Shown one piece after another: positions 20,857 to 30,999 of a stretch of DNA of 64,000 nt. Under the pieces are notes generated by a model. It searched no databases and was not told the origin of the DNA. It saw nothing but the letters and a program-made list of their open reading frames with translations. Source of the stretch: Candidatus Magasanikiibacteriota bacterium (lineage in GTDB: Bacteria; Patescibacteriota; Patescibacteriia; Magasanikbacterales; UBA922); the NCBI GenBank assembly GCA_003518365.1, contig DOYU01000021.1, forward strand, positions 492 to 64,491, written 5' to 3'. Positions within the stretch are counted from its first letter, which is position 1, and every line of letters starts with the position of its first letter. The position numbers were made by a program, and so were the translations under genes.

Positions 20857-20954
20857 AGCGAGTATGAATAGTATATCACAAAAATTATTCTGCTCACATG
20901 GCGAGTCTTGATTTTTTCGTGTATATTGAGTATTATAGCGAAGCAAAAAAAGAT

Positions 20955-20983
20955 GGGCTTGTCCTGCCTTTCGCGAAAGGCGG
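20955..20983 (+). repeat. Left copy of the direct repeat flanking the GIY-YIG gene (contains hairpin CCTGCCTTTCGCGAAAGGCGG)
   Basis: GGGCTTGTCCTGCCTTTCGCGAAAGGCGG. The near-identical copy at 21322-21351 differs by a G/T substitution at the first base and one extra C. It is followed by a second hairpin, TCCCTCCCTTC-acg-GAAGGGAGGGA (20989-21014). Confidence 0.7.
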
Positions 20984-21047
20984 AGCGCGTCCCTCCCTTC
21001 ACGAAGGGAGGGATATATCGTATAGTGTGTATCAAACAGGAGGGGCT

Positions 21048-21296
21048 ATGTTCTATACCTACCTATTGCAAAGTACAAAGGACAACAATTTTTATATTGG
21101 ATCAACGACGGATTTAAAAAGAAGATTCACCGAACATAACGATGGGAAAGTTTCTTCAACAAAATTTCGTCGTCCAATGAAATTGGTATATTACGAAGCC
21201 TATCCAGAAGAACATCTGGCACGAGTACGCGAACAAAAATTAAAAGATTTTGGTTCAGCATACACAGCACTATTAAAAAGATTAGGGTATAAATAA
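21048..21296 (+). CDS. Small GIY-YIG nuclease family protein (UPF0213/YhbQ-like)
   Basis: MFYTYLLQSTKDNNFYIGSTTDLKRRFTEHN carries the GIY..YIG and R..H motifs. ATG 21048 is preceded by AGGAGGGG. Confidence 0.85.
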   Translation: MFYTYLLQSTKDNNFYIGSTTDLKRRFTEHNDGKVSSTKFRRPMKLVYYEAYPEEHLARVREQKLKDFGSAYTALLKRLGYK

Positions 21297-21321
21297 TATA
21301 GATATATAGTACGTTGTATAG

Positions 21322-21351
21322 TGGCTTGTCCCTGCCTTTCGCGAAAGGCGG
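21322..21351 (+). repeat. Right copy of the direct repeat flanking the GIY-YIG gene
   Basis: TGGCTTGTCCCTGCCTTTCGCGAAAGGCGG. Confidence 0.7.
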
Positions 21352-21411
21352 GATAAATACTGTGGTCTTCAAAAGAAGATGAGGCAAACAAAAAAATGCA
21401 TATACATACAT

Positions 21412-21482
21412 GGGCGCATCGTATAGTGGTAGTACATTGGTCTCCAAAACCAATTGCGTGGGTTCGATTCCTACTGCGCCTG
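21412..21482 (+). tRNA. tRNA-Trp (anticodon CCA)
   Basis: Folded by hand into a cloverleaf: acceptor GGGCGCA/TGCGCCT, anticodon stem TTGGT/ACCAA, loop CTCCAAA, T-arm GTGGG-TTCGATT-CCTAC. CCA is not encoded. Confidence 0.9.
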
Positions 21483-21538
21483 CACTGGAAAACATACCAA
21501 AAATAAGGTATGTTTTTATAGATAATAGAATAAACGAT

Positions 21539-21973
21539 ATGAAAAAAATAACCATCTCCCCCATGCCGACAATAGATTTTCTCTACATATTTTTTGCAGG
21601 TCTTTTGGGGGCAATCAGCTTCGGCATTGTATTTGGACTCATTGGTCTCTTGTTTGCAGATTATCTCGGCTTTCCACTCGCGGTAGGATCTGAAGAATTT
21701 ATGATGGGAGCTAGCATGATCTTCTACAGTACGCTTGCAATACCAGTCGGCGCATATATTGGATGCCTCAAAACTGCAAAATATTTATCATATACAACAA
21801 AAGACCTATACTCTTATTTTACAGGGTTTGTCCTTATTGCGATTGGATTATTTTTGAAAGATTATGTAAGTGTCTATTCATTGCTAGCATTCGGTGCAGT
21901 CAGTGCATTGGTCTTTGCAATGGTAATGGGGGTCTCTGCAAGCAAATCACAAAAGTCTGACATGACAAAATAG
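21539..21973 (+). CDS. Hypothetical small membrane protein (4 TM helices)
   Basis: ATG 21539 (MKKITISPM...). The track ORF start at 21410 overlaps the tRNA, so it is rejected. Hydrophobic segments throughout. Confidence 0.5.
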   Translation: MKKITISPMPTIDFLYIFFAGLLGAISFGIVFGLIGLLFADYLGFPLAVGSEEFMMGASMIFYSTLAIPVGAYIGCLKTAKYLSYTTKDLYSYFTGFVLIAIGLFLKDYVSVYSLLAFGAVSALVFAMVMGVSASKSQKSDMTK

Positions 21974-22063
21974 GTCAAATCGATTTAATCGTTATTCATA
22001 TCCAGCCCCAAGCTGAATTTTGAAGTATCGTTCCAAGTGCGTCTCACAACGCATGCTAACAAG

Positions 22064-22092
22064 ATAAGACTTACCCTAGTCTTATTTTTTTT
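22064..22092 (+). terminator. Intrinsic terminator
   Basis: ATAAGACT-taccct-AGTCTTAT followed by TTTTTTTT. Confidence 0.65.
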
Positions 22093-22176
22093 ACCAAAAA
22101 TTGGATAATGTTTCTATAATAATATACTATATATGATAATCAAGAATATATTATTCAAGATTAATAGATATAGATT

Positions 22177-22827
22177 ATGTATAGAAAAGGAGAAGTCATA
22201 GGTGTCGGGAATGACAAACGCATATATGCTGACGCAATAACTCCTGAGACAAGAGTTATTGCTGAATTTCGCAAGGAACAAACACCTGAAGAAATAAAGA
22301 GTGTGTACTATCTTGGGAACATAGCTCATATATTATTCCCTCAAAATGTACCCAAAGTATATGAAGCAGGGATGCATCCACAAGAACATACGAAAGTAGA
22401 AAGAAAAAAGGTGGATGTCAATCATAAAAATACGGCTGATCTCATGGTGACATACGAAGATTATTTCATGGGAGATGGTGAAACGGGACCTTCTTCAGAA
22501 GAAGATAGTGAGATGGATGTAGATATAGAAAAAAAAGAAACCGATCCAAGAGTAAAACAACTTTTAACAAAAGCGTCTTCTGTCGGATTATATTTTGATA
22601 CAGGCGGACAAAATTTTTCTTTTGACGATTTGGGTACTGTCCAATATCTTGAAGTGAATCCAGCATTTCATATAGAAAAAAACCACGTCCGTTTGCACTT
22701 CAACGAAAGCAAATTAAGAGATGCCATACAAGCATTAGAAAATGAAAAAGAGAAAAAAAAGGCTACACTATATTTCGAACGATTGATGTCTTTGATCCAA
22801 GTAGCACAAAATAATCTTATACAATAG
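22177..22827 (+). CDS. Hypothetical protein; possible atypical kinase-like fold (YrbL-like); weak
   Basis: Glycine-rich loop-like VIGVGNDKRIY near the N-terminus and LYFDTGGQNFSF resembling a kinase catalytic loop, read by eye only. Very AT-rich. Confidence 0.45.
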   Translation: MYRKGEVIGVGNDKRIYADAITPETRVIAEFRKEQTPEEIKSVYYLGNIAHILFPQNVPKVYEAGMHPQEHTKVERKKVDVNHKNTADLMVTYEDYFMGDGETGPSSEEDSEMDVDIEKKETDPRVKQLLTKASSVGLYFDTGGQNFSFDDLGTVQYLEVNPAFHIEKNHVRLHFNESKLRDAIQALENEKEKKKATLYFERLMSLIQVAQNNLIQ

Positions 22828-22913
22828 TTCCAACTTCCTCCTTCCTCTACGATCCCCTGCACCTCCTGCAGTAGCTCCTGCCGGCAGGCAGGTTAGCGAA
22901 GGCACGGCACTTG

Positions 22914-22948
22914 AAAAACAGAGTGAAAAACACTCTGTTTTTCTTTTT
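22914..22948 (+). terminator. Intrinsic terminator
   Basis: AAACAGAGTG-aaaaa-CACTCTGTTT followed by a T-rich run. Confidence 0.65.
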
Positions 22949-23002
22949 GACATGAAGGGAAGAACGGAGTATTGTACAAGTAAACATATACATTATATTG
23001 GT

Positions 23003-23212
23003 ATGGCTCATCAAAAAAATACAATCGGAAAAAACATCAAACGATTACGGCAAGAACAAAAAATTTCCCAAGATCGTCTTTCAAAACTTGCGGATCTTTC
23101 TTTGAATACTATTGTTACCGTTGAAAGTGGCGCAAACGAAAATCCTACTATTGATACGCTCACAAGGATTGCGAAAGCGTTTCAAGTTGGCGTGGATGAC
23201 CTCATAACATAA
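23003..23212 (+). CDS. XRE-family helix-turn-helix transcriptional regulator (69 aa)
   Basis: IGKNIKRLRQEQKISQDRLSKLADLSLNTIVTVESG is a canonical HTH_3. Start set at ATG 23003. Confidence 0.85.
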   Translation: MAHQKNTIGKNIKRLRQEQKISQDRLSKLADLSLNTIVTVESGANENPTIDTLTRIAKAFQVGVDDLIT

Positions 23213-23220
23213 CACCCACT

Positions 23221-24198
23221 ATGTCTAAACAAACACCTACCAATAATCTCGCTATCTACCAAGCTAAAAACGGCGCGATTGAATTTCGCGGTGATTTTGA
23301 GCAAGAGACGGTTTGGGGAAATTTAAATCAAATTGCCGATCTTTTTGGTCGCGACAAGTCCGTTGTTTCCCGCCATATAAAAAACATCTATAAAACAGGC
23401 GAATTAAACGAAACGGCAACTGTTGCAAAAATTGCAACAGTTCAAAAGGAAGGAAGGAGAGAAGTGATGCGTGAAATTGAGTACTTCAACCTTGATGTTA
23501 TTTTGTCCGTTGGGTACAGAGTAGATTCCAAGCAAGCCACGCAATTCCGCAAATGGTCAACGCAAGCGCTCAAGGCACACCTTGTAGACGGGTATACCAT
23601 CAACAAAAAACGCATCGGTAATAACTACGAACACTTTTTGCGTGCAGTGGCAGAAACAAAAGCACTCCTCCCTGTGGGCAACAAGGTTTCTACCGAGGAT
23701 ATACTTGAACTCGTGAACGCATTTGCTGCTACGTGGTTTTCGCTCGATGCATATGACAAAGACGCATTTCCTCAAAAAACAGCCTCAAAAAAGTCAGTTT
23801 CAGTTGACACTGTAAAGCTACTCAATGCGATTGGTGAGTTGAAGCAAGAACTGATAACCAAAAAGCAAGCAACAAACCTATTTGCACAAGAAAGGAAGAC
23901 GGGAACAGTAGAAGGAATCGTCGGAAATGTATTTCAGTCTGCCTTTGGCAAAGATGTATATCCAAGTATAGAAGAAAAGGCCGCACACATCCTCTACTTC
24001 ATGGTAAAAAATCATCCATTCACCGATGGCAACAAGCGCAGCGGAGCCTTTGCATTTGTTTGGTTTCTACGAAAAGCTGGTTTACTCCGACCAAGTCTTA
24101 CTCCAGAAGCGTTGACTGCCATTACCCTCCTCATTGCAGAGAGTAATCCAAAAGATAAAGACAAAATGGTGGGACTAGTGGTGATGTTAATCAAATAA
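23221..24198 (+). CDS. RhuM-family N-terminal domain fused to a Fic/Doc domain
   Basis: N-terminus: QIADLFGRDKSVVSRHIKNI ... YFNLDVILSVGYRVDSKQATQFRKW, the RhuM family pattern. C-terminus: HPFTDGNKRSGAF, which matches the Doc-type core HxFx[DN][GA]NKR. Confidence 0.8.
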   Translation: MSKQTPTNNLAIYQAKNGAIEFRGDFEQETVWGNLNQIADLFGRDKSVVSRHIKNIYKTGELNETATVAKIATVQKEGRREVMREIEYFNLDVILSVGYRVDSKQATQFRKWSTQALKAHLVDGYTINKKRIGNNYEHFLRAVAETKALLPVGNKVSTEDILELVNAFAATWFSLDAYDKDAFPQKTASKKSVSVDTVKLLNAIGELKQELITKKQATNLFAQERKTGTVEGIVGNVFQSAFGKDVYPSIEEKAAHILYFMVKNHPFTDGNKRSGAFAFVWFLRKAGLLRPSLTPEALTAITLLIAESNPKDKDKMVGLVVMLIK

Positions 24199-24200
24199 CT

Positions 24201-25322
24201 ATGGCAAATAAAAACCTTACAAAAGCAAAAAAGGCAAAAAATGATGAATTTTATACTCAATTTTCAGATATTCAAAAAGAAGTTGAGTCTTATCTTGAGT
24301 ATAACCCAGATACTTTTAAAGATAAGATAATTTACAGTAATTGTGACGACCCGTTCGAAAGTAATTTCTTTCGCTATTTTGTATTAAATTTTGATCGTTT
24401 AGGACTAAAGAGACTTATTTCAACGAGCTACAAACCCTCACCTGTTGCCAATACGCAACTGGGATTATTTGGCGATGACAAAACACTTGAAAAAGTAAAA
24501 GGCCGTCCAAAAGTAACCGCTAACAAATTCATCATCAACGAAGTTGGCGATATCGACGGCGACGGCTCTTTTACGCTAGAAGATATTGCCCAACAGCTTC
24601 GAGCGAATAAAAATAACGAATGGACTCCGCTTGAGGGCGATGGTGATTTTAGAAGTGCCGAATGTGTCGAGTTGCTCAAACAATCTGACATCGTAGTTAC
24701 TAATCCTCCATTTAGTTTATTCCGTGAATATATTACGCAACTTTTCGAACACAAAAAGCAATTTCTAATTATTGGTAGCATGAACTCAATTACTTACAAA
24801 GAAATCTTTGTGTTGATTAAAAATAATAAATTGTGGTTAGGTAATGGGTTTAATGCTGGCAATGCATATTTTTCAACTCCCAATGCGCGAAAAGATTTTG
24901 CTTCTGGTGTGTATGATGAAAAAACTGGTCTTGTAAAATTTCGGAATTGTCATTGGTTTACTAATTTAGATCATGGTCGTCGTCATCAGCCTCTTAATCT
25001 GATGACAACAAATGAAAACCTAAGATTTAATAAAAAAATGCAAGGCAAAACTACTTATGATCGTTATGACAATTATGACGCTATTGATGTACCATTTACA
25101 AAAGCTATCCCTTCTGACTACGAAGGAGTAATGGGTGTTCCTATAAGCTTTCTCGATAAGTACAATCCTAATCAGTTTGAGATATTGGGCTCTGACACAG
25201 ACATAAAAGAAGGTAAACTTCCACTTTTAATAATAAGTAAATGGAATGGAAAGCTAGACAGAGGTTATATACATGGAAAGAGAATCTTCAGTAGAATGTT
25301 TATTAAGCACAAAAAGAAATAA
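24201..25322 (+). CDS. N6-adenine DNA methyltransferase, EcoRI-methylase family
   Basis: N-terminal [16 protein letters not shown]...[18 protein letters not shown] and catalytic motif [12 protein letters not shown]. It begins 2 nt after the previous stop codon. Confidence 0.8.
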
Positions 25323-25323
25323 T

Positions 25324-26487
25324 ATGAAAACAACCTTAAAAAATGATATCACCGTTAAAGAAGTTTGCGACGGCTTTGAATACAACGAATTTGAAGGAAA
25401 AGGTTTGTTTGGTCTCTCTGGCAAACTAACTATTCAGCCAGAGTATCAGCGTAATTATATTTATGCTGACGGCAAACGTGACGTTGCTGTAATTGACTCA
25501 ATTTTAAAGGGTTATCCTATCGGTTTGATCTATTTCAATCAGGCTGGTAAAGACGAGTTTGAAGTATTAGATGGTCAACAGCGCATCACGAGTATAGGTC
25601 GTTTTGTTACTGGCAAATTTGCTGTTAAAGATAAAAACGGTCACGAGCAATACTACAGCGGTATGTCTGAGAGTCAGCGTGAGCAAATTATGAAGACTAA
25701 GTTGTTGGTGTATGTGTGCGAAGGTGACGAGCCTGAGATCAAAGATTGGTTCAAGACTATTAACATTGCTGGAGTGCCATTAACTGAACAAGAGATTCTT
25801 AACGCGGTATATTCTGGGCCATTCGTTACTCGAGCTCGTGAAGAGTTTAGTAATAGTCAAAATACCAACATCCAGAAATGGAGTGCGTACATCGCAGGTG
25901 ATATCAAGCGTCAGGCATACTTGGAACGAGCTCTAGATTGGGTTTCTGATGGATCAATCGATAGTTATATGAGCAAACACCGCAATGACAAAAATATTAC
26001 TGAACTAAAAAAACATTTTGATACTATCATTGACTGGGTCTCAACTATCTTTACTGACGTTGAGAGCGATATGAAAGGCCTTGAGTGGAACAGGATTTAT
26101 GAGACATATCACAAGAAGAAATACAATCCGACTACCATCTCTGCTTCTGTTCAGAAGCTCTATGCTGATGGTTTCGTAAAAAGTCGCAAAGGCATTTTTG
26201 AATATGTTTTAGGCGGAGAAGTTGAAACTAAACTACTTGAAATACGAGTATTTGAGGACTCAACAAAACGTTCAGTTTACGAAGCTCAAACTGCTATTGC
26301 AAAGAAAAAAGGTGTTTCAAACTGTCCACATTGTGCTATTGGGCATGATGCCAATAAAGAAAAAATTTGGACTTTAAGCGATATGGATGCTGATCATGTG
26401 GCTGCTTGGAGTAAAGGTGGAAAAACGGAAGCAAAAAACTGTGAGATGTTGTGTAAAACGCATAATCGTGCCAAAGGTAATCGGTAA
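25324..26487 (+). CDS. DUF262 (ParB/GmrS-like NTPase) fused to an HNH endonuclease
   Basis: N-terminus: IQPEYQRNY ... [10 protein letters not shown], the DUF262 hallmark. C-terminus: CPHCAIG...[12 protein letters not shown]...[15 protein letters not shown], the HNH motif. Start set at ATG 25324, 1 nt after the methyltransferase stop codon. Confidence 0.8.
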
Positions 26488-26493
26488 AATATT

Positions 26494-27987
26494 ATGCACC
26501 TCACAAAAACCGACTATCTCGAATATACCTTTTGCAAAAAGAACCTTTGGCTCAAAAAACATAAGCCAGAGCTTTTTGAAGATGTAGAATTGTCGGAATT
26601 TGAAAAAAAAATTATTGAGGAAGGGAATTTGGCTGATGAGGCTGCAAGAAATTTATTTCCTGATGGAGAATTGATCGGTATCGTCGGAGTAAATGCTATA
26701 CCTGTTACAAAAAAGATACTGGAGAAAAACCCACCAGTATTATTTCAAGGTGCATTTTCATTCAATGACTTTTTTGTTCAAGCGGATATTTTACGTTACA
26801 ACGACATTTTAAAGGGTTGGGAACTTTACGAAGTAAAAGCAACAAATGATGTAAAACGAGAAATCCCTCATCACCATATCAACGACCTTGCGTTTCAAAA
26901 AATTGTAATTGAACAAAATGGGATACACATTATAAAAGCAGGCGTTATTCACCTTAACGGCGAATATAGACAACGAGGCAAAGTAAACTATAACGAACTG
27001 TTCATCATTGCCGAGCTTACTGATGAAGTACTAGAAGCGGAAGAACTTGTACGTGGGCAGATGCGTGATATTCACACATATATGGACATGGCAGAAGAAA
27101 AAAATTGTGAATGTTTGTATCGAGGTAGAAATGCACAATGTACAACGTTCGCTTACTCTAATCCTGAAGTGCCTGAATACTCTGTTCACGATATCAATAG
27201 AATTGGCGGAAGCAAAAAACTGTTTTTTGACTGGATAGATAGAGGGATCTACCGGCTCGAAGATATAGATAACCCAGAAAATCTTACAGGATCAAAAAAG
27301 GCACAATATACTGCGTACATAACAGGTAAGCCTCTCATAGACAAAGAAGCAATACAAAAAGAACTTGGTGAATTGGTTTTTCCTCTCCAATTTTTTGATT
27401 ACGAAGGATATTCTAGTGCTATCCCCAGCTTTAACGGCTTCGGTGCGTATGAACAAGTGCCTTTTCAATATTCACTACATACGCTCCATGAAGACGGAAC
27501 GCTTGAACACCGAGAATATCTCATCACAGAGCCAGAGAATGATTTGACTTTGCCATTGGTAGAAAGAATGAAAGAAGACTTTGATGATGTTGGTACTGTC
27601 ATATCTTGGTACAAATCATACGAATCACAACGAAACGACAAACTAGCAGAACTTCATCCAAATCATGCAGACTTTCTTATTGGCCTCAATGACAGAATGT
27701 TTGACCTCATGACAATGTTTTCCAAAAATTATTATGTGGATGCACGGTTCAAAGGGAGTGCAAGCATAAAAAATGTTCTGCCGGTCATTGTACCGGAATT
27801 AACGTACAAAGTACTTGGTATTCAAAAAGGAGATCAAGCAGTAGAACGTTGGGAAAAAATGATATTTGCAGATATTCATCCAGATGAAAAGAAAGAAATA
27901 AAAAAAGATTTGCTTGAGTATTGCAAATTGGATACTTTGGCGATGGTGAGGATTTGGGAGTTTCTAATGAAAATAAAAAATGTATGA
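26494..27987 (+). CDS. DUF2779 family protein (N-terminal PD-(D/E)xK/Cas4-like nuclease, C-terminal DUF2779)
   Basis: MHLTKTDYLEYTFCKKNLWLKKHKPE...FPDG, ELYEVKA (ExK), and FFDYEGYSSAIPSFNGFGAYEQVPFQYSLH, the DUF2779 hallmark. Confidence 0.75.
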   Translation: MHLTKTDYLEYTFCKKNLWLKKHKPELFEDVELSEFEKKIIEEGNLADEAARNLFPDGELIGIVGVNAIPVTKKILEKNPPVLFQGAFSFNDFFVQADILRYNDILKGWELYEVKATNDVKREIPHHHINDLAFQKIVIEQNGIHIIKAGVIHLNGEYRQRGKVNYNELFIIAELTDEVLEAEELVRGQMRDIHTYMDMAEEKNCECLYRGRNAQCTTFAYSNPEVPEYSVHDINRIGGSKKLFFDWIDRGIYRLEDIDNPENLTGSKKAQYTAYITGKPLIDKEAIQKELGELVFPLQFFDYEGYSSAIPSFNGFGAYEQVPFQYSLHTLHEDGTLEHREYLITEPENDLTLPLVERMKEDFDDVGTVISWYKSYESQRNDKLAELHPNHADFLIGLNDRMFDLMTMFSKNYYVDARFKGSASIKNVLPVIVPELTYKVLGIQKGDQAVERWEKMIFADIHPDEKKEIKKDLLEYCKLDTLAMVRIWEFLMKIKNV

Positions 27988-29219
27988 ATATGCACAGCCC
28001 TCTTTCTTCAATTCAACAACTACAATCAATATTAAGTAGTCCTTCGAAAAAAATCGGATTCCTTTTTGGGGCTGGAATTTCAATGGAAAAAAAAGATAAG
28101 AGTGATTTGGTGGTAGGAACTGATGACAAAAAAGATGAGAACGGTAATGTAATAAAAGAAGGAATGACAAGTCTCGCAATTAAAAATTTATCAGAGGAAC
28201 AAAAAAAAGCTGTAGATTTAATAAAGAATGAGGTTGAAACAGAAAATAAAAAATTTAACATCGAAAGTCTCTTATCAAAAATTTCTGAAAAAGAAAGAGC
28301 TGTTGGCGATCAAGAGCTTTGTGGTTTAACAAAAGAAAAATTATTAAATTTGAGAAAGGATATACAGGATAAAATAAGAGATTTGGTTTCCGTACATAGG
28401 GTGGATGATAAAGAAATTGATATTGAGGCATTAAATCACAGCACATTTGCTCAATGGATTAGTAATGCTGATAGAGAATTCTCAGTAGAAATTTTTACAA
28501 CAAATTACGATTATCTACTAGAACTAGCACTTGAAAAACAAGGAATTCCCTATTTCGATGGTTTTGTGGGTAGTTATGAAGCATTTTTTTGCCCTGAATG
28601 GATTGAAGATGACACGCCTGTCAAAAATTGGGTAAAGCTATGGAAATTACATGGTTCACTTGGTTGGGCACAGAATAGTAAAAAAGAAATAATTAGAACA
28701 TCTGGTAATACCGGTGCGGCGATGATATACCCTTCATTTTTGAAATATGACCATTCCAAAAAACAGCCATACTTGAGCTATATGGATAGATTGTCCGATT
28801 TTTTAAAGCAAGAAGATTCTGTCTTATTTGTTTGTGGTTATTCATTTGGAGATGAACATATAAATGAAATAATTTTGACAGCACTTACGCACTCTCGCTC
28901 ATCACATGTATTTGTGTTGAAAAATGGAGAAATGGAAAAATCTAGCCATCTTTCAAAAGAAATTGCACAAAAAAATTCTAGAATTTCAGTTTATGCAAAA
29001 CGTACCTGTATTATTGGAGGTAAATTTGGAGAATGGAAGCTCGATAGAGAACCAGACAGAAATGAATCCTACAACATATTAGATTATGCTTTTGATGAAG
29101 ACGCTACACCTGATGGAGTACCATGGACAGGAAGAGGTGATTTTCGTCTTGGAGACTTTAAAAAATTTACGGAGTTTTTAGAGCTTTTCTACCATAATTC
29201 GAGATATATCAATAAATGA
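27984..29219 (+). CDS. SIR2-like (SIR2_2) NAD-binding defence protein
   Basis: IGFLFGAGIS, FTTNYDYLLE, KLHGS and CGYSFGDEHIN. The start ATG 27984 overlaps the DUF2779 stop codon (ATGA). Confidence 0.8.
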   Translation: MNMHSPLSSIQQLQSILSSPSKKIGFLFGAGISMEKKDKSDLVVGTDDKKDENGNVIKEGMTSLAIKNLSEEQKKAVDLIKNEVETENKKFNIESLLSKISEKERAVGDQELCGLTKEKLLNLRKDIQDKIRDLVSVHRVDDKEIDIEALNHSTFAQWISNADREFSVEIFTTNYDYLLELALEKQGIPYFDGFVGSYEAFFCPEWIEDDTPVKNWVKLWKLHGSLGWAQNSKKEIIRTSGNTGAAMIYPSFLKYDHSKKQPYLSYMDRLSDFLKQEDSVLFVCGYSFGDEHINEIILTALTHSRSSHVFVLKNGEMEKSSHLSKEIAQKNSRISVYAKRTCIIGGKFGEWKLDREPDRNESYNILDYAFDEDATPDGVPWTGRGDFRLGDFKKFTEFLELFYHNSRYINK

Positions 29220-29220
29220 C

Positions 29221-30999
29221 ATGAGAAATAAAGAGACATTTATAGGTAAAGTGAGAAGTGTCACAGGTAGTACGCTTGCTATTGAGTTACACGAAGATAT
29301 TAGATCAACGTTACCTATTATTGATGGGATATTATATAGAATTGGACAAATTGGTTCTTTTATAAGAATTCCTTTTGGTTATGTTGATTTATATGGAGTA
29401 ATTACACAAGCTGGATCAGACGCTATACCAGAAAAATTAGCGGAGCAAGAGGGTTTGAAAGGATCTCGCTGGATTAAGGCTACTCTTATTGGAGAAAGGG
29501 TCGGTAATAGATTTGAAAGAGGGGTGTTGCAATTTCCTATTGCTGATGACGAAGTTCATTTGGTCACGAAGGATGATTTGGAATTGATATATGGTGGAAT
29601 TGATGAATCAAAGTCAATAGTAGTTGGACAGGTCAGTGCCTCTGAAAATCTGTCAGCAAGAATAGATATAGACAGATTAATTAATAGACATTGCGCCATA
29701 CTTGGCTCTACAGGAAGTGGAAAATCAAATACAGTTTCTGTAATACTAGAAGCAATTGCTTCTAGACATCATGATGATGAAAATATAAAAAGTACGAGAA
29801 TTCTTTTGGTCGACCCTCATGGTGAGTATGGCGATATTTTAAAAAATTATAGTCAAATATTTAAGTTAGGAGCAGACTTGTCAAAAGGAGAAAAAGAACT
29901 AGTTGTTCCATATTGGGCTTTACCTTTTCAAGAATTTATAAAAAGTTTTCCAGGTAATCTAACTGAAAAGCAGGAAGAGTACATACGTGAAGAAATTCTA
30001 CAAAGAAAGATTAAGGCTTCTAAAAAATTAAATCCTATTCCACAAGAGGAGGCAATTACAGCTGATAGCCCTATCCCTTTCAGTATTAAACAACTATGGT
30101 TTGACCTTATTGATATAGAGCAAAAAACTTTTAATAACAAGGAGTTAACCGAAGTCGCACTCGAATCACTAGGCGATCCTGAGGCACTTAAGCCTAACAA
30201 ATACTCCATAGCGTCAACAAATAATACAGCCCCTTTCAGTAATAACAGGGTTGCGCAGGGTATTTCAAGTTTTTTAAACTTAATGCGGAATAGAATTTTA
30301 GATCAAAGATTTAAGTTTTTATTCAAACTAGACACGCTCTCTCCTGGTATTGACGGAACTATTTCAAGTGATTTAGACAGTCTCATTGAAAGTTGGATTG
30401 GGACAGAGAAACCAATAACTATTTTAGACCTATCGAGTATACCCTCTGAAATCATGGGTTCAATTTCTGGTTCTTTGCTTTCAATAATTTATGAATTTCT
30501 ATATTGGGGACAGAATGAAGATGTGGGAGGTCGCCAAACACCTATTCTGTTTGTACTAGAAGAGGCACATAATTATCTAAAGTCAGGCGAGAATTCTATT
30601 GCCTCAAGAACTGTACAAAAAATTGCAAAAGAGGGTAGAAAATATGGTTCAGGTTTACTACTCGTAACCCAACGACCTTCTGAACTGGATGATACTGTTT
30701 TGAGTCAATGTGGTTCAGTTATCGCGTTGAGAATGACAAATTCTAGCGATAGAGGCCACGTAAAGAGTGCTGTCGAGGATTCCCTAAACGAGTTAGTTGA
30801 TTTGCTTCCGAGCCTAAGAACAGGTGAAGGTTTAATTATGGGTGAATGTGTAAAATTACCTATGCGAACTAAATTTTCTAAAACTAGGGAATCTAAAAGT
30901 ACAGACCCACTTGTTTCTAAGCAGTGGAAAACAACTCTTCCAGAATCCTCTAACTATAATAAAGTTTTAGAAAATTGGAGAAATAATAAATTTTCTTAA
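29221..30999 (+). CDS. HerA-like (DUF87) FtsK/HerA-clade ATPase
   Basis: Walker A ILGSTGSGKSNT, Walker B ILFVLEEAHNYL, GRKYGSGLLLVTQRPSEL. It begins 1 nt after the SIR2 stop codon. Confidence 0.85.
   Translation: MRNKETFIGKVRSVTGSTLAIELHEDIRSTLPIIDGILYRIGQIGSFIRIPFGYVDLYGVITQAGSDAIPEKLAEQEGLKGSRWIKATLIGERVGNRFERGVLQFPIADDEVHLVTKDDLELIYGGIDESKSIVVGQVSASENLSARIDIDRLINRHCAILGSTGSGKSNTVSVILEAIASRHHDDENIKSTRILLVDPHGEYGDILKNYSQIFKLGADLSKGEKELVVPYWALPFQEFIKSFPGNLTEKQEEYIREEILQRKIKASKKLNPIPQEEAITADSPIPFSIKQLWFDLIDIEQKTFNNKELTEVALESLGDPEALKPNKYSIASTNNTAPFSNNRVAQGISSFLNLMRNRILDQRFKFLFKLDTLSPGIDGTISSDLDSLIESWIGTEKPITILDLSSIPSEIMGSISGSLLSIIYEFLYWGQNEDVGGRQTPILFVLEEAHNYLKSGENSIASRTVQKIAKEGRKYGSGLLLVTQRPSELDDTVLSQCGSVIALRMTNSSDRGHVKSAVEDSLNELVDLLPSLRTGEGLIMGECVKLPMRTKFSKTRESKSTDPLVSKQWKTTLPESSNYNKVLENWRNNKFS

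Follow-up and report, generated by a model that had tools for sequence, protein, structure and literature searches.

We analysed a stretch of 64,000 nt from a Candidatus Magasanikiibacteriota bacterium (here named the window), in which an island of low GC content (0.31-0.40, versus 0.42-0.46 in the flanks) carries a defence operon on the plus strand. The operon starts with a small XRE/HTH_3 gene (23003..23212; ATG at 23003, TAA at 23212; 69 aa), hereafter XRE, which is the probable transcriptional controller of the operon. After a gap of 8 nt, it is followed on the same strand by an ORF of 325 aa (23221..24198; ATG at 23221, TAA at 24198) encoding a RhuM/Fic/DOC family protein (PADLOC PDC-S23), hereafter RhuM-Doc. 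Both ORFs are exactly as described in an earlier, sequence-only reading of this DNA. The rest of the operon (24201..30999, plus strand), annotated with Pfam and PADLOC, consists of five tightly packed, co-directional genes, encoding an EcoRI-like adenine methyltransferase (MTase; 24201..25322; PF13651, E 3e-127), a DUF262/GmrSD_N-HNH endonuclease (25273..26487; PADLOC REase_II, E 1.7e-88), a DUF2779 protein with weak Cas4-like matches (26494..27987), SIR2 (27921..29219; PADLOC E 7e-108) and HerA (29221..30999; PADLOC E 2e-150), while housekeeping genes resume from 31402. This packed downstream operon agrees with the proposal, made in the sequence-only reading, that the XRE and RhuM-Doc genes are the front end of a defence island.

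Upstream of XRE, an intrinsic-terminator-like hairpin (22913..22943, plus strand; a 13-bp stem, then a T run) ends the preceding transcription unit and is followed by a predicted sigma-70-like promoter for the operon, TTGACA-17-TATTGT (22947..22975, plus strand; 10 of 12 positions matching). Downstream of this promoter lies a 17-nt motif, ATACATTATATTGGTAT (22988..23004, plus strand), which overlaps the XRE start codon and occurs once in the 64-kb window, compared with 0.07 copies expected by chance. This motif is a candidate operator. Its dyad symmetry is weak, with arms of 4-5 nt (ATAC/GTAT), and when a classical palindromic operator was sought between the promoter and XRE, only the terminator hairpin and short repeats were found; the comparison across loci described below was more informative on the operator than this palindrome search. 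By eye, an 8-nt palindrome, TTGTACAA, overlaps the -10 element. An Rfam search of 21300..24300 matched only a tRNA-Trp (21412..21483), and a GC-rich segment at 22828..22912 had no Rfam match. We kept 23003 as the start of XRE, since its homologues are 69-71 aa long in nearly all cases and since the alternative start at 22952, which would give an ORF of 86 aa, lies within the -35 hexamer; the longer ORF was rejected on these grounds. The 86-aa version is the one annotated in some public assemblies.

The RhuM-Doc protein is composed of two recognizable domains. The N-terminal RhuM module (approximately residues 10-125; 23248..23595, plus strand) is a winged-helix/Bro-N-like, putative DNA-binding domain. 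Pfam RhuM (PF13310, Virulence_RhuM) matches residues 66-135 with 81.9 bits, well above the gathering cutoff of 33.7, in a match spanning only profile positions 1-70 of 252, and the N-terminal half taken alone matches the PADLOC RhuM candidate models PDC-S05; these scores uphold the earlier assignment of this half to the RhuM family. The C-terminal Doc-type Fic domain (approximately residues 197-325; 23809..24195, plus strand) is recognized by Pfam Fic/DOC (PF02661) over residues 204-283, with 48.5 bits against a gathering cutoff of 24, and the NCBIfam model TIGR01550 (DOC_P1) falls below its curated cutoff (33.6 versus 38.65 bits). Its active-site motif, HPFTDGNKR (residues 265-273; 24013..24039, plus strand), fits the consensus HxFx(D/N)(A/G)NKR described for Doc proteins together with a six-helix core, in which the Lys of the motif forces an inverted binding of ATP and hence a kinase chemistry (PMC4177925). 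The second Arg found in the canonical Fic motif (HPFTDGNKRSGA) is missing from it. A stretch resembling the Fic inhibitory helix [ST]xxxE[GN], TGTVEG (residues 226-231), was also considered and rejected as a chance match, its Glu not being conserved in close homologues.

From end to end, the protein matches the PDC-S23 HMM (E 6.6e-112; residues 7-325, profile positions 4-324 of 327). At least 7997 homologues were found in a collection of 5.8 billion proteins; among the matches listed, all carry PF13310 plus PF02661, the length is about 325-340 aa, and the sources include many Patescibacteria but also Proteobacteria, Bacteroidota and Firmicutes. In databases these proteins are named "virulence protein RhuM/Fic/DOC family protein" (NCBI), "RhuM family protein" or "prophage maintenance system killer protein" (JGI). 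Conservation was measured on an alignment of 147 sequences with 38-76% identity, in which about 24 positions besides the active-site motif do not vary. More specifically, the invariant residues of the Doc domain include K263, F267, D269, N271, K272 and R273, H265 is retained by at least 90% of the sequences, and the N-terminal part contains an invariant block formed by W32, H52, E61, L91, D92, G98, Y99, R100, S103, F109, R110 and W112. Invariant positions among sequences this diverged indicate purifying selection on the function of RhuM-Doc.

An AlphaFold2 model built with the 147-sequence alignment (mean pLDDT 83.7) was used for the structural comparisons, while an earlier model based on 34 close homologues (pLDDT 57.9) was left out of the fold search. 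The pLDDT values are 89-98 for residues 200-325, 79-96 for residues 31-120 and 58-80 for the linker, and with a pTM of 0.55 the inter-domain arrangement is uncertain. In this model, a helical linker joins the winged-helix/Bro-N-like module of RhuM-Doc to its Doc-type Fic domain. The C-terminal domain is predicted to adopt the alpha-helical Fic core fold, in the form of a minimal Doc-like core; the best four Foldseek matches were Doc chains, and the closest solved structure is Doc, not an AMPylase. A profile search of PDB sequences returned a "Death-on-curing family protein" (9vzc_A, E 1.7e-8) and P1 Doc (E 5e-3), and sequence searches with the N-terminal half against PDB sequences gave no match. 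Profiles and fold together place the HPFTDGNKR motif in a Fic/Doc fold of the Doc type, as the sequence-only reading had claimed when it set this motif apart from the AMPylase type.

To describe the neighbourhood of RhuM-Doc, we sampled 76 loci with 37-61% identity from species-representative genomes of many phyla. The small ORFs immediately 5' of the gene encoded an HTH_3 protein in 1 case out of 25, and larger genes in this position were mostly unrelated housekeeping genes (N6_Mtase in 2 of 47). On the 3' side, HsdR is the immediate neighbour in 7 of 73 loci. An all-against-all comparison of ORFs of at least 40 aa within 700 bp detected no small neighbour shared among the 76 loci, the largest shared-neighbour cluster being HsdR, with 6 loci. 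No XRE like that of the window was found in these loci by phmmer, and a search for a Phd/YefM-type antitoxin gave no match. Type I restriction-modification (R-M) genes are present in 17 of the 76 loci (phmmer), on the strand of RhuM-Doc in all but one, and about three quarters of the sampled loci had no R-M gene within the flanks examined, which reached up to 8 kb on each side and often less. The five close relatives that were checked (70-77% identity) had no XRE beside them (0/5): P0003 (76%) directly follows an HsdM, and P0005 (75%), P0002 (77%), P0007 (71%) and P0027 (70%) are solitary between housekeeping genes. These housekeeping neighbours are genes such as those for GAPDH, Asp-tRNA ligase, MscS and DNA ligase. 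RhuM-Doc was also observed on conjugative and mobilisable plasmids and, among its contexts, as the lone passenger of a Tn3-family transposon. Members of the family rarely stand immediately after an XRE controller, as RhuM-Doc does in the window. As RhuM-Doc is kept in many genomes without a conserved neighbour, its dependence on a dedicated antitoxin is unlikely.

The XRE protein was then characterized in its own right. Pfam identifies HTH_3 over residues 12-67 (E 1.4e-11), so that essentially all of the 69 residues belong to the HTH domain; being close to a bare HTH domain, the protein has no extension of the kind by which Phd binds Doc. Its PADLOC matches are HTH_VI (E 3.4e-12), capH (E 2.2e-9) and the R-M model "Control_protein" (E 7.6e-9), and sub-threshold NCBIfam matches were obtained with the HipB-like (E 3.3e-10), PezA and MqsA antitoxin models. 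The closest solved structures are QseC, SinR and CylR2, with no C protein among them. We collected 955 homologues, of which the best 120 come from several Patescibacteria lineages and are 75-87% identical to the window protein, apart from one near-identical copy (99%).

These homologues (75-87% identity) are found directly 5' of methyltransferases in type I, II, IIG or III R-M operons. The contexts sampled amount to only five independent groups. In two of them, a gap of 2 nt separates XRE from the next gene, which is either HsdM, followed by Bro-N and AAA_15/21, or a Dam-like MTase with an NmeDI-type endonuclease, or a fused MTase. Two others have a gap of 4 nt, followed in one by an Eco57I-type MTase, a 450-aa gene, SIR2 and HerA, and in the other by an N6_N4 MTase and a ResIII helicase. 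The last is a single locus with XRE upstream of an HTH-SocA/Panacea gene. RhuM-Doc is absent from all five groups. Both in the window and in its homologues, XRE is a small HTH_3 protein whose gene leads a co-directional R-M operon.

The control region is conserved together with the gene. By eye, TTGAC(A/C)-17-TAT(T/C)(G/A)T is present in 3 of the 4 other XRE-headed locus groups (L093, L098-L102 and L103), and the L105-L108 group has a promoter with a weaker -35 element (TGGACA/TTGGAC). Between promoter and start codon, every XRE locus group carries the motif ATACA(A/T)TATA(A/T)T(G/A)GTAT, in a variant one base shorter in L093. The 17-nt motif is present in exactly one copy, just 5' of XRE, in 17 XRE-headed loci, and was not found in RhuM-Doc loci without XRE. 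In these respects XRE resembles the C proteins of R-M systems, which are likewise small XRE-type HTH proteins encoded by the first gene of their operon, with a conserved motif between promoter and start codon. Unlike C proteins, however, it precedes a methyltransferase gene and not an endonuclease gene, and its motif is only weakly palindromic and unlike the canonical C-box. Most likely, XRE controls the operon much as the controller (C) protein of an R-M system does. The label of repressor given to it in the sequence-only reading is plausible, although more for the operon as a whole than for the Doc gene specifically.

A comparison by blastn with six related loci (L001-L006) delimited a 1.4-kb cassette (22820..24215, plus strand) that includes the terminator, the promoter, the motif, XRE, RhuM-Doc and the first 15 nt of the next gene. 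Identity over the cassette is 97.5-99%, compared with 86.6% over the flanking core gene (21539..21979). In the related genome the cassette is followed by different cargo, the gene after RhuM-Doc in L001-L006 being a type I HsdM. The L001 operon corresponds to the L093 operon with RhuM-Doc added between XRE and HsdM; in L093, HsdM directly follows XRE. Moreover, RhuM-Doc ends in 12-16 nt (GATGTTAATCAAATAA) that look like the 3' terminus typical of XRE genes (GATGATTTAATTAAATAA); this likeness could have arisen by chance or could mark a past recombination event.

The explanation that we favour, and that we consider probable, separates the two genes: XRE and its motif would be the control module of the operon, and RhuM-Doc a self-contained defence cargo inserted behind XRE, whose Doc domain would act as a kinase that is autoinhibited until a signal arrives. 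Behind the terminator, the sigma-70-like promoter, the 17-nt motif and XRE form a highly conserved head that recurs before many different R-M operons in related (probably Patescibacteria) genomes. XRE would bind the 17-nt motif and thereby control transcription of the whole operon as a C protein does, possibly by repression. RhuM-Doc, a member of PDC-S23 lying between XRE and the methyltransferase, would function on its own. By homology with P1 Doc, we infer that it is a kinase, possibly acting on EF-Tu: the Doc domain would bind ATP in the inverted orientation and phosphorylate a target such as EF-Tu, translation would stop, and an abortive-infection outcome could follow. Because RhuM-Doc does without a partner, its N-terminal region probably keeps the protein inactive, a block that would be lifted once this DNA-binding module meets a signal, for example foreign DNA. 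This autoinhibition is a conjecture, given the uncertain inter-domain arrangement of the model (pTM 0.55, linker pLDDT 58-80). Other observations also speak against the favoured explanation: the shared cassette fits a functional pair of XRE and RhuM-Doc as well, the TIGR01550 score is below cutoff, and the motif has a weak symmetry and, in L093, a spacing that is off by one base.

A bolder reading of the same cassette, which we regard as possible but doubtful, takes the promoter, the 17-nt motif and XRE as a conserved unit of Patescibacteria defence islands that moves horizontally and serves as a platform on which cargo genes dock and are expressed. Its cargo would be swapped by recombination at the 3' end of XRE; RhuM-Doc would be one such cargo, and its 3'-end similarity to XRE the scar of its insertion.

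Alternatively, RhuM-Doc could be an accessory of R-M systems, bound to DNA via its N-terminal module and modifying an R-M subunit or another DNA-bound protein, so as to tune or back up restriction. PrrC backs up EcoprrI in a comparable way. The type I R-M genes in 17 of 76 loci, with a single exception to the shared strand, and HsdR as the immediate downstream gene in 7 of 73 are consistent with such a role, as is the position of RhuM-Doc between controller and methyltransferase in both the window and L001; an embedding in R-M neighbourhoods has also been noted in the literature (PMC3710099). However, about three quarters of the sampled loci lack an R-M gene in the flanking sequence examined (at most 8 kb per side and often shorter), close relatives stand alone among housekeeping genes, and the R-M partners belong to types that are unrelated (L001 has type I, the window EcoRI-like with DUF262-HNH), which makes this role unlikely.

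Since the two genes share a strand and a promoter, with 8 nt between them, it would be tempting to read them as a type II toxin-antitoxin pair, in which XRE would repress the promoter and neutralise Doc by binding it, and the loss of XRE would free the kinase. XRE-type antitoxins exist, XRE has sub-threshold matches to the HipB-like, PezA and MqsA antitoxin models, and the two genes travel as a cassette of 97.5-99% identity before different cargo. P1 Doc is itself a classical toxin of this kind (PMC4177925), which we count in favour of a pair. Against it, an HTH gene is found in 1 of the 25 small upstream ORFs and no neighbour is conserved across the 76 diverse loci, XRE is absent from all five close relatives checked, members of this XRE family with 75-87% identity stand before methyltransferases at loci that have no Doc gene, and XRE, a bare HTH domain, has no toxin-binding extension. 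We therefore judge a toxin-antitoxin pair to be quite unlikely. It is likewise unlikely that XRE is a Phd-like partner of Doc: the homologues of RhuM-Doc almost never occur with an XRE or a conserved small neighbour, and the same XRE family heads R-M operons without RhuM-Doc.

Least probable of all, RhuM-Doc would play no part in phage defence and would be either an addiction gene that selfishly stabilises mobile DNA or an inert remnant, a view that its presence on plasmids and as a Tn3-family passenger, the JGI name and its scattered chromosomal positions may suggest, but addiction normally requires a labile antidote gene and none is conserved beside RhuM-Doc, the positions invariant in 147 sequences indicate purifying selection, and the gene recurs in defence neighbourhoods.

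Comparison with known systems shows where the locus is ordinary and where it differs. The window protein shares its length, its two Pfam domains and its invariant motif with the PDC-S23 and NCBI RhuM/Fic/DOC families, and its architecture is no different from theirs. The P1 Doc of Phd-Doc (PDB 3k33, 3dd7) is only about 20% identical to the window Doc domain, which differs from it in being fused to an N-terminal region of 200 residues and in having neither a Phd/YefM-type antitoxin gene nor a conserved partner. With canonical RhuM (PF13310, PDC-S05; RhuM of Salmonella SPI-3), the N-terminal ~135 residues are shared, including the invariant NLD..GYR..FR.W block, whereas the C-terminal region (profile positions 71-252) is replaced by the helical linker and the Doc domain. 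The fusion is already known, from the NCBI product name, from the PADLOC HMMs (PDC-S23, a single-gene candidate) and from a study of 2013 reporting that, in R-M neighbourhoods, RhuM-like genes stand in place of DOC toxin genes and are often fused to DOC, and proposing RhuM as a toxin domain in multilevel defence (PMC3710099). The expectation that the fusion would offer a new functional hint for RhuM was thus anticipated, as both the fusion with its R-M link and the architecture had been recorded. In the papers searched, PDC-S23 is not mentioned, and among those on RhuM with phage, Fic or R-M we found no experimental study of the fusion.

The locus adds one more member to a named and very abundant RhuM-Doc family. 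A Doc-type domain that is tolerated without a partner gene is probably self-controlled, and this makes the protein a candidate stand-alone Doc-type Fic kinase effector of defence. The more interesting lead, within the five groups sampled, is the conserved head of XRE and motif before very different R-M operons of Patescibacteria. This strikingly conserved regulator family heads many kinds of R-M operon in bacteria of the candidate phyla radiation, and offers a handle on the control and exchange of defence genes in these minimal genomes.

Lastly, the Bro-N + Fic genes and the PrrC/RloC-type genes found in R-M operons likewise combine a DNA-binding or sensor module with a toxin-type enzyme, as a presumed second line of defence (PMC3710099). 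The window protein differs from them by its predicted Doc kinase-type effector, which is neither a HEPN RNase nor an AMPylase-type Fic, and by having no ABC ATPase. Bro-N+Fic genes adjoin a close relative (L088, L089).

The XRE family to which the 69-aa gene upstream of RhuM-Doc belongs consists of proteins of 69-71 aa, which share 75-87% identity over several Patescibacteria lineages (window 22988..23212; loci L093-L108, which are headed by an XRE gene and lack RhuM-Doc). In these loci, the XRE-family gene heads restriction-modification operons of types I, II, IIG and III, whose methyltransferase gene begins 2-4 nt downstream of it, and in the window as well as in the loci the 17-nt motif ATACAWTATAWTRGTAT is found upstream of XRE every time.

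The final 12-16 nt of RhuM-Doc (GATGTTAATCAAATAA; window 24183..24198) are similar to the 3' end that the XRE gene usually has (GATGATTTAATTAAATAA; L093 5193..5210). L001, a related-genome locus with the cassette and a type I HsdM, corresponds to the L093 operon plus RhuM-Doc, inserted exactly where the end of RhuM-Doc resembles the XRE 3' end. This likeness may be a recombination scar.

On its upstream side, the cassette adjoins a 216-aa ORF (window 22177..22827), for which no significant match was obtained in Pfam or PADLOC. Between the stop of this ORF and the terminator lies a GC-rich stretch of approximately 85 nt (window 22828..22912) containing the palindrome CCTGCCGGCAGG. The stretch as a whole is kept in L001, within the 97.5% identical cassette; it has no match in Rfam and no ORF is assigned to it. 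In L001, two unrelated small ORFs occupy the place of the 216-aa ORF, so the flanks of the cassette are variable on both sides.

The tRNA-Trp segment (window 21406..21517; tRNA-Trp 21412..21483) aligns inverted to L001 8198..8310 with 84% identity, while the neighboring membrane-protein gene (21539..21979) aligns to L001 in direct orientation, an arrangement suggesting a small inversion adjoining the island. The tRNA-Trp is also adjoined by a 132-aa ORF (window 20898..21296), in which a candidate GIY-YIG-like sequence (YIGSTTDLKRRFTEHN) was recognized by eye.

Around a close relative of RhuM-Doc, a protein of about 300 aa with a weak Bro-N match and a Fic domain is encoded 3 kb upstream (L088 4346..5227; L089 4298..5227), and this neighborhood holds a second gene of the type "DNA-binding domain + Fic" besides the RhuM-Doc relative.

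Among the downstream island genes, DUF2779, SIR2 and HerA are grouped in window 26494..30999 and are grouped again around an XRE-headed type IIG operon (L103 3442..10210). The DUF2779 genes of the window and L103 share 70.6% DNA identity, the L103 copy being located on the opposite side of XRE and on the opposite strand compared with the window. Finally, the end of the methyltransferase gene and the DUF262-HNH ORF, as listed, overlap by 50 nt (window 25273..25322), and the true start of DUF262-HNH may be the internal Met at residue 17 of the listed ORF ("MKTTLKND").
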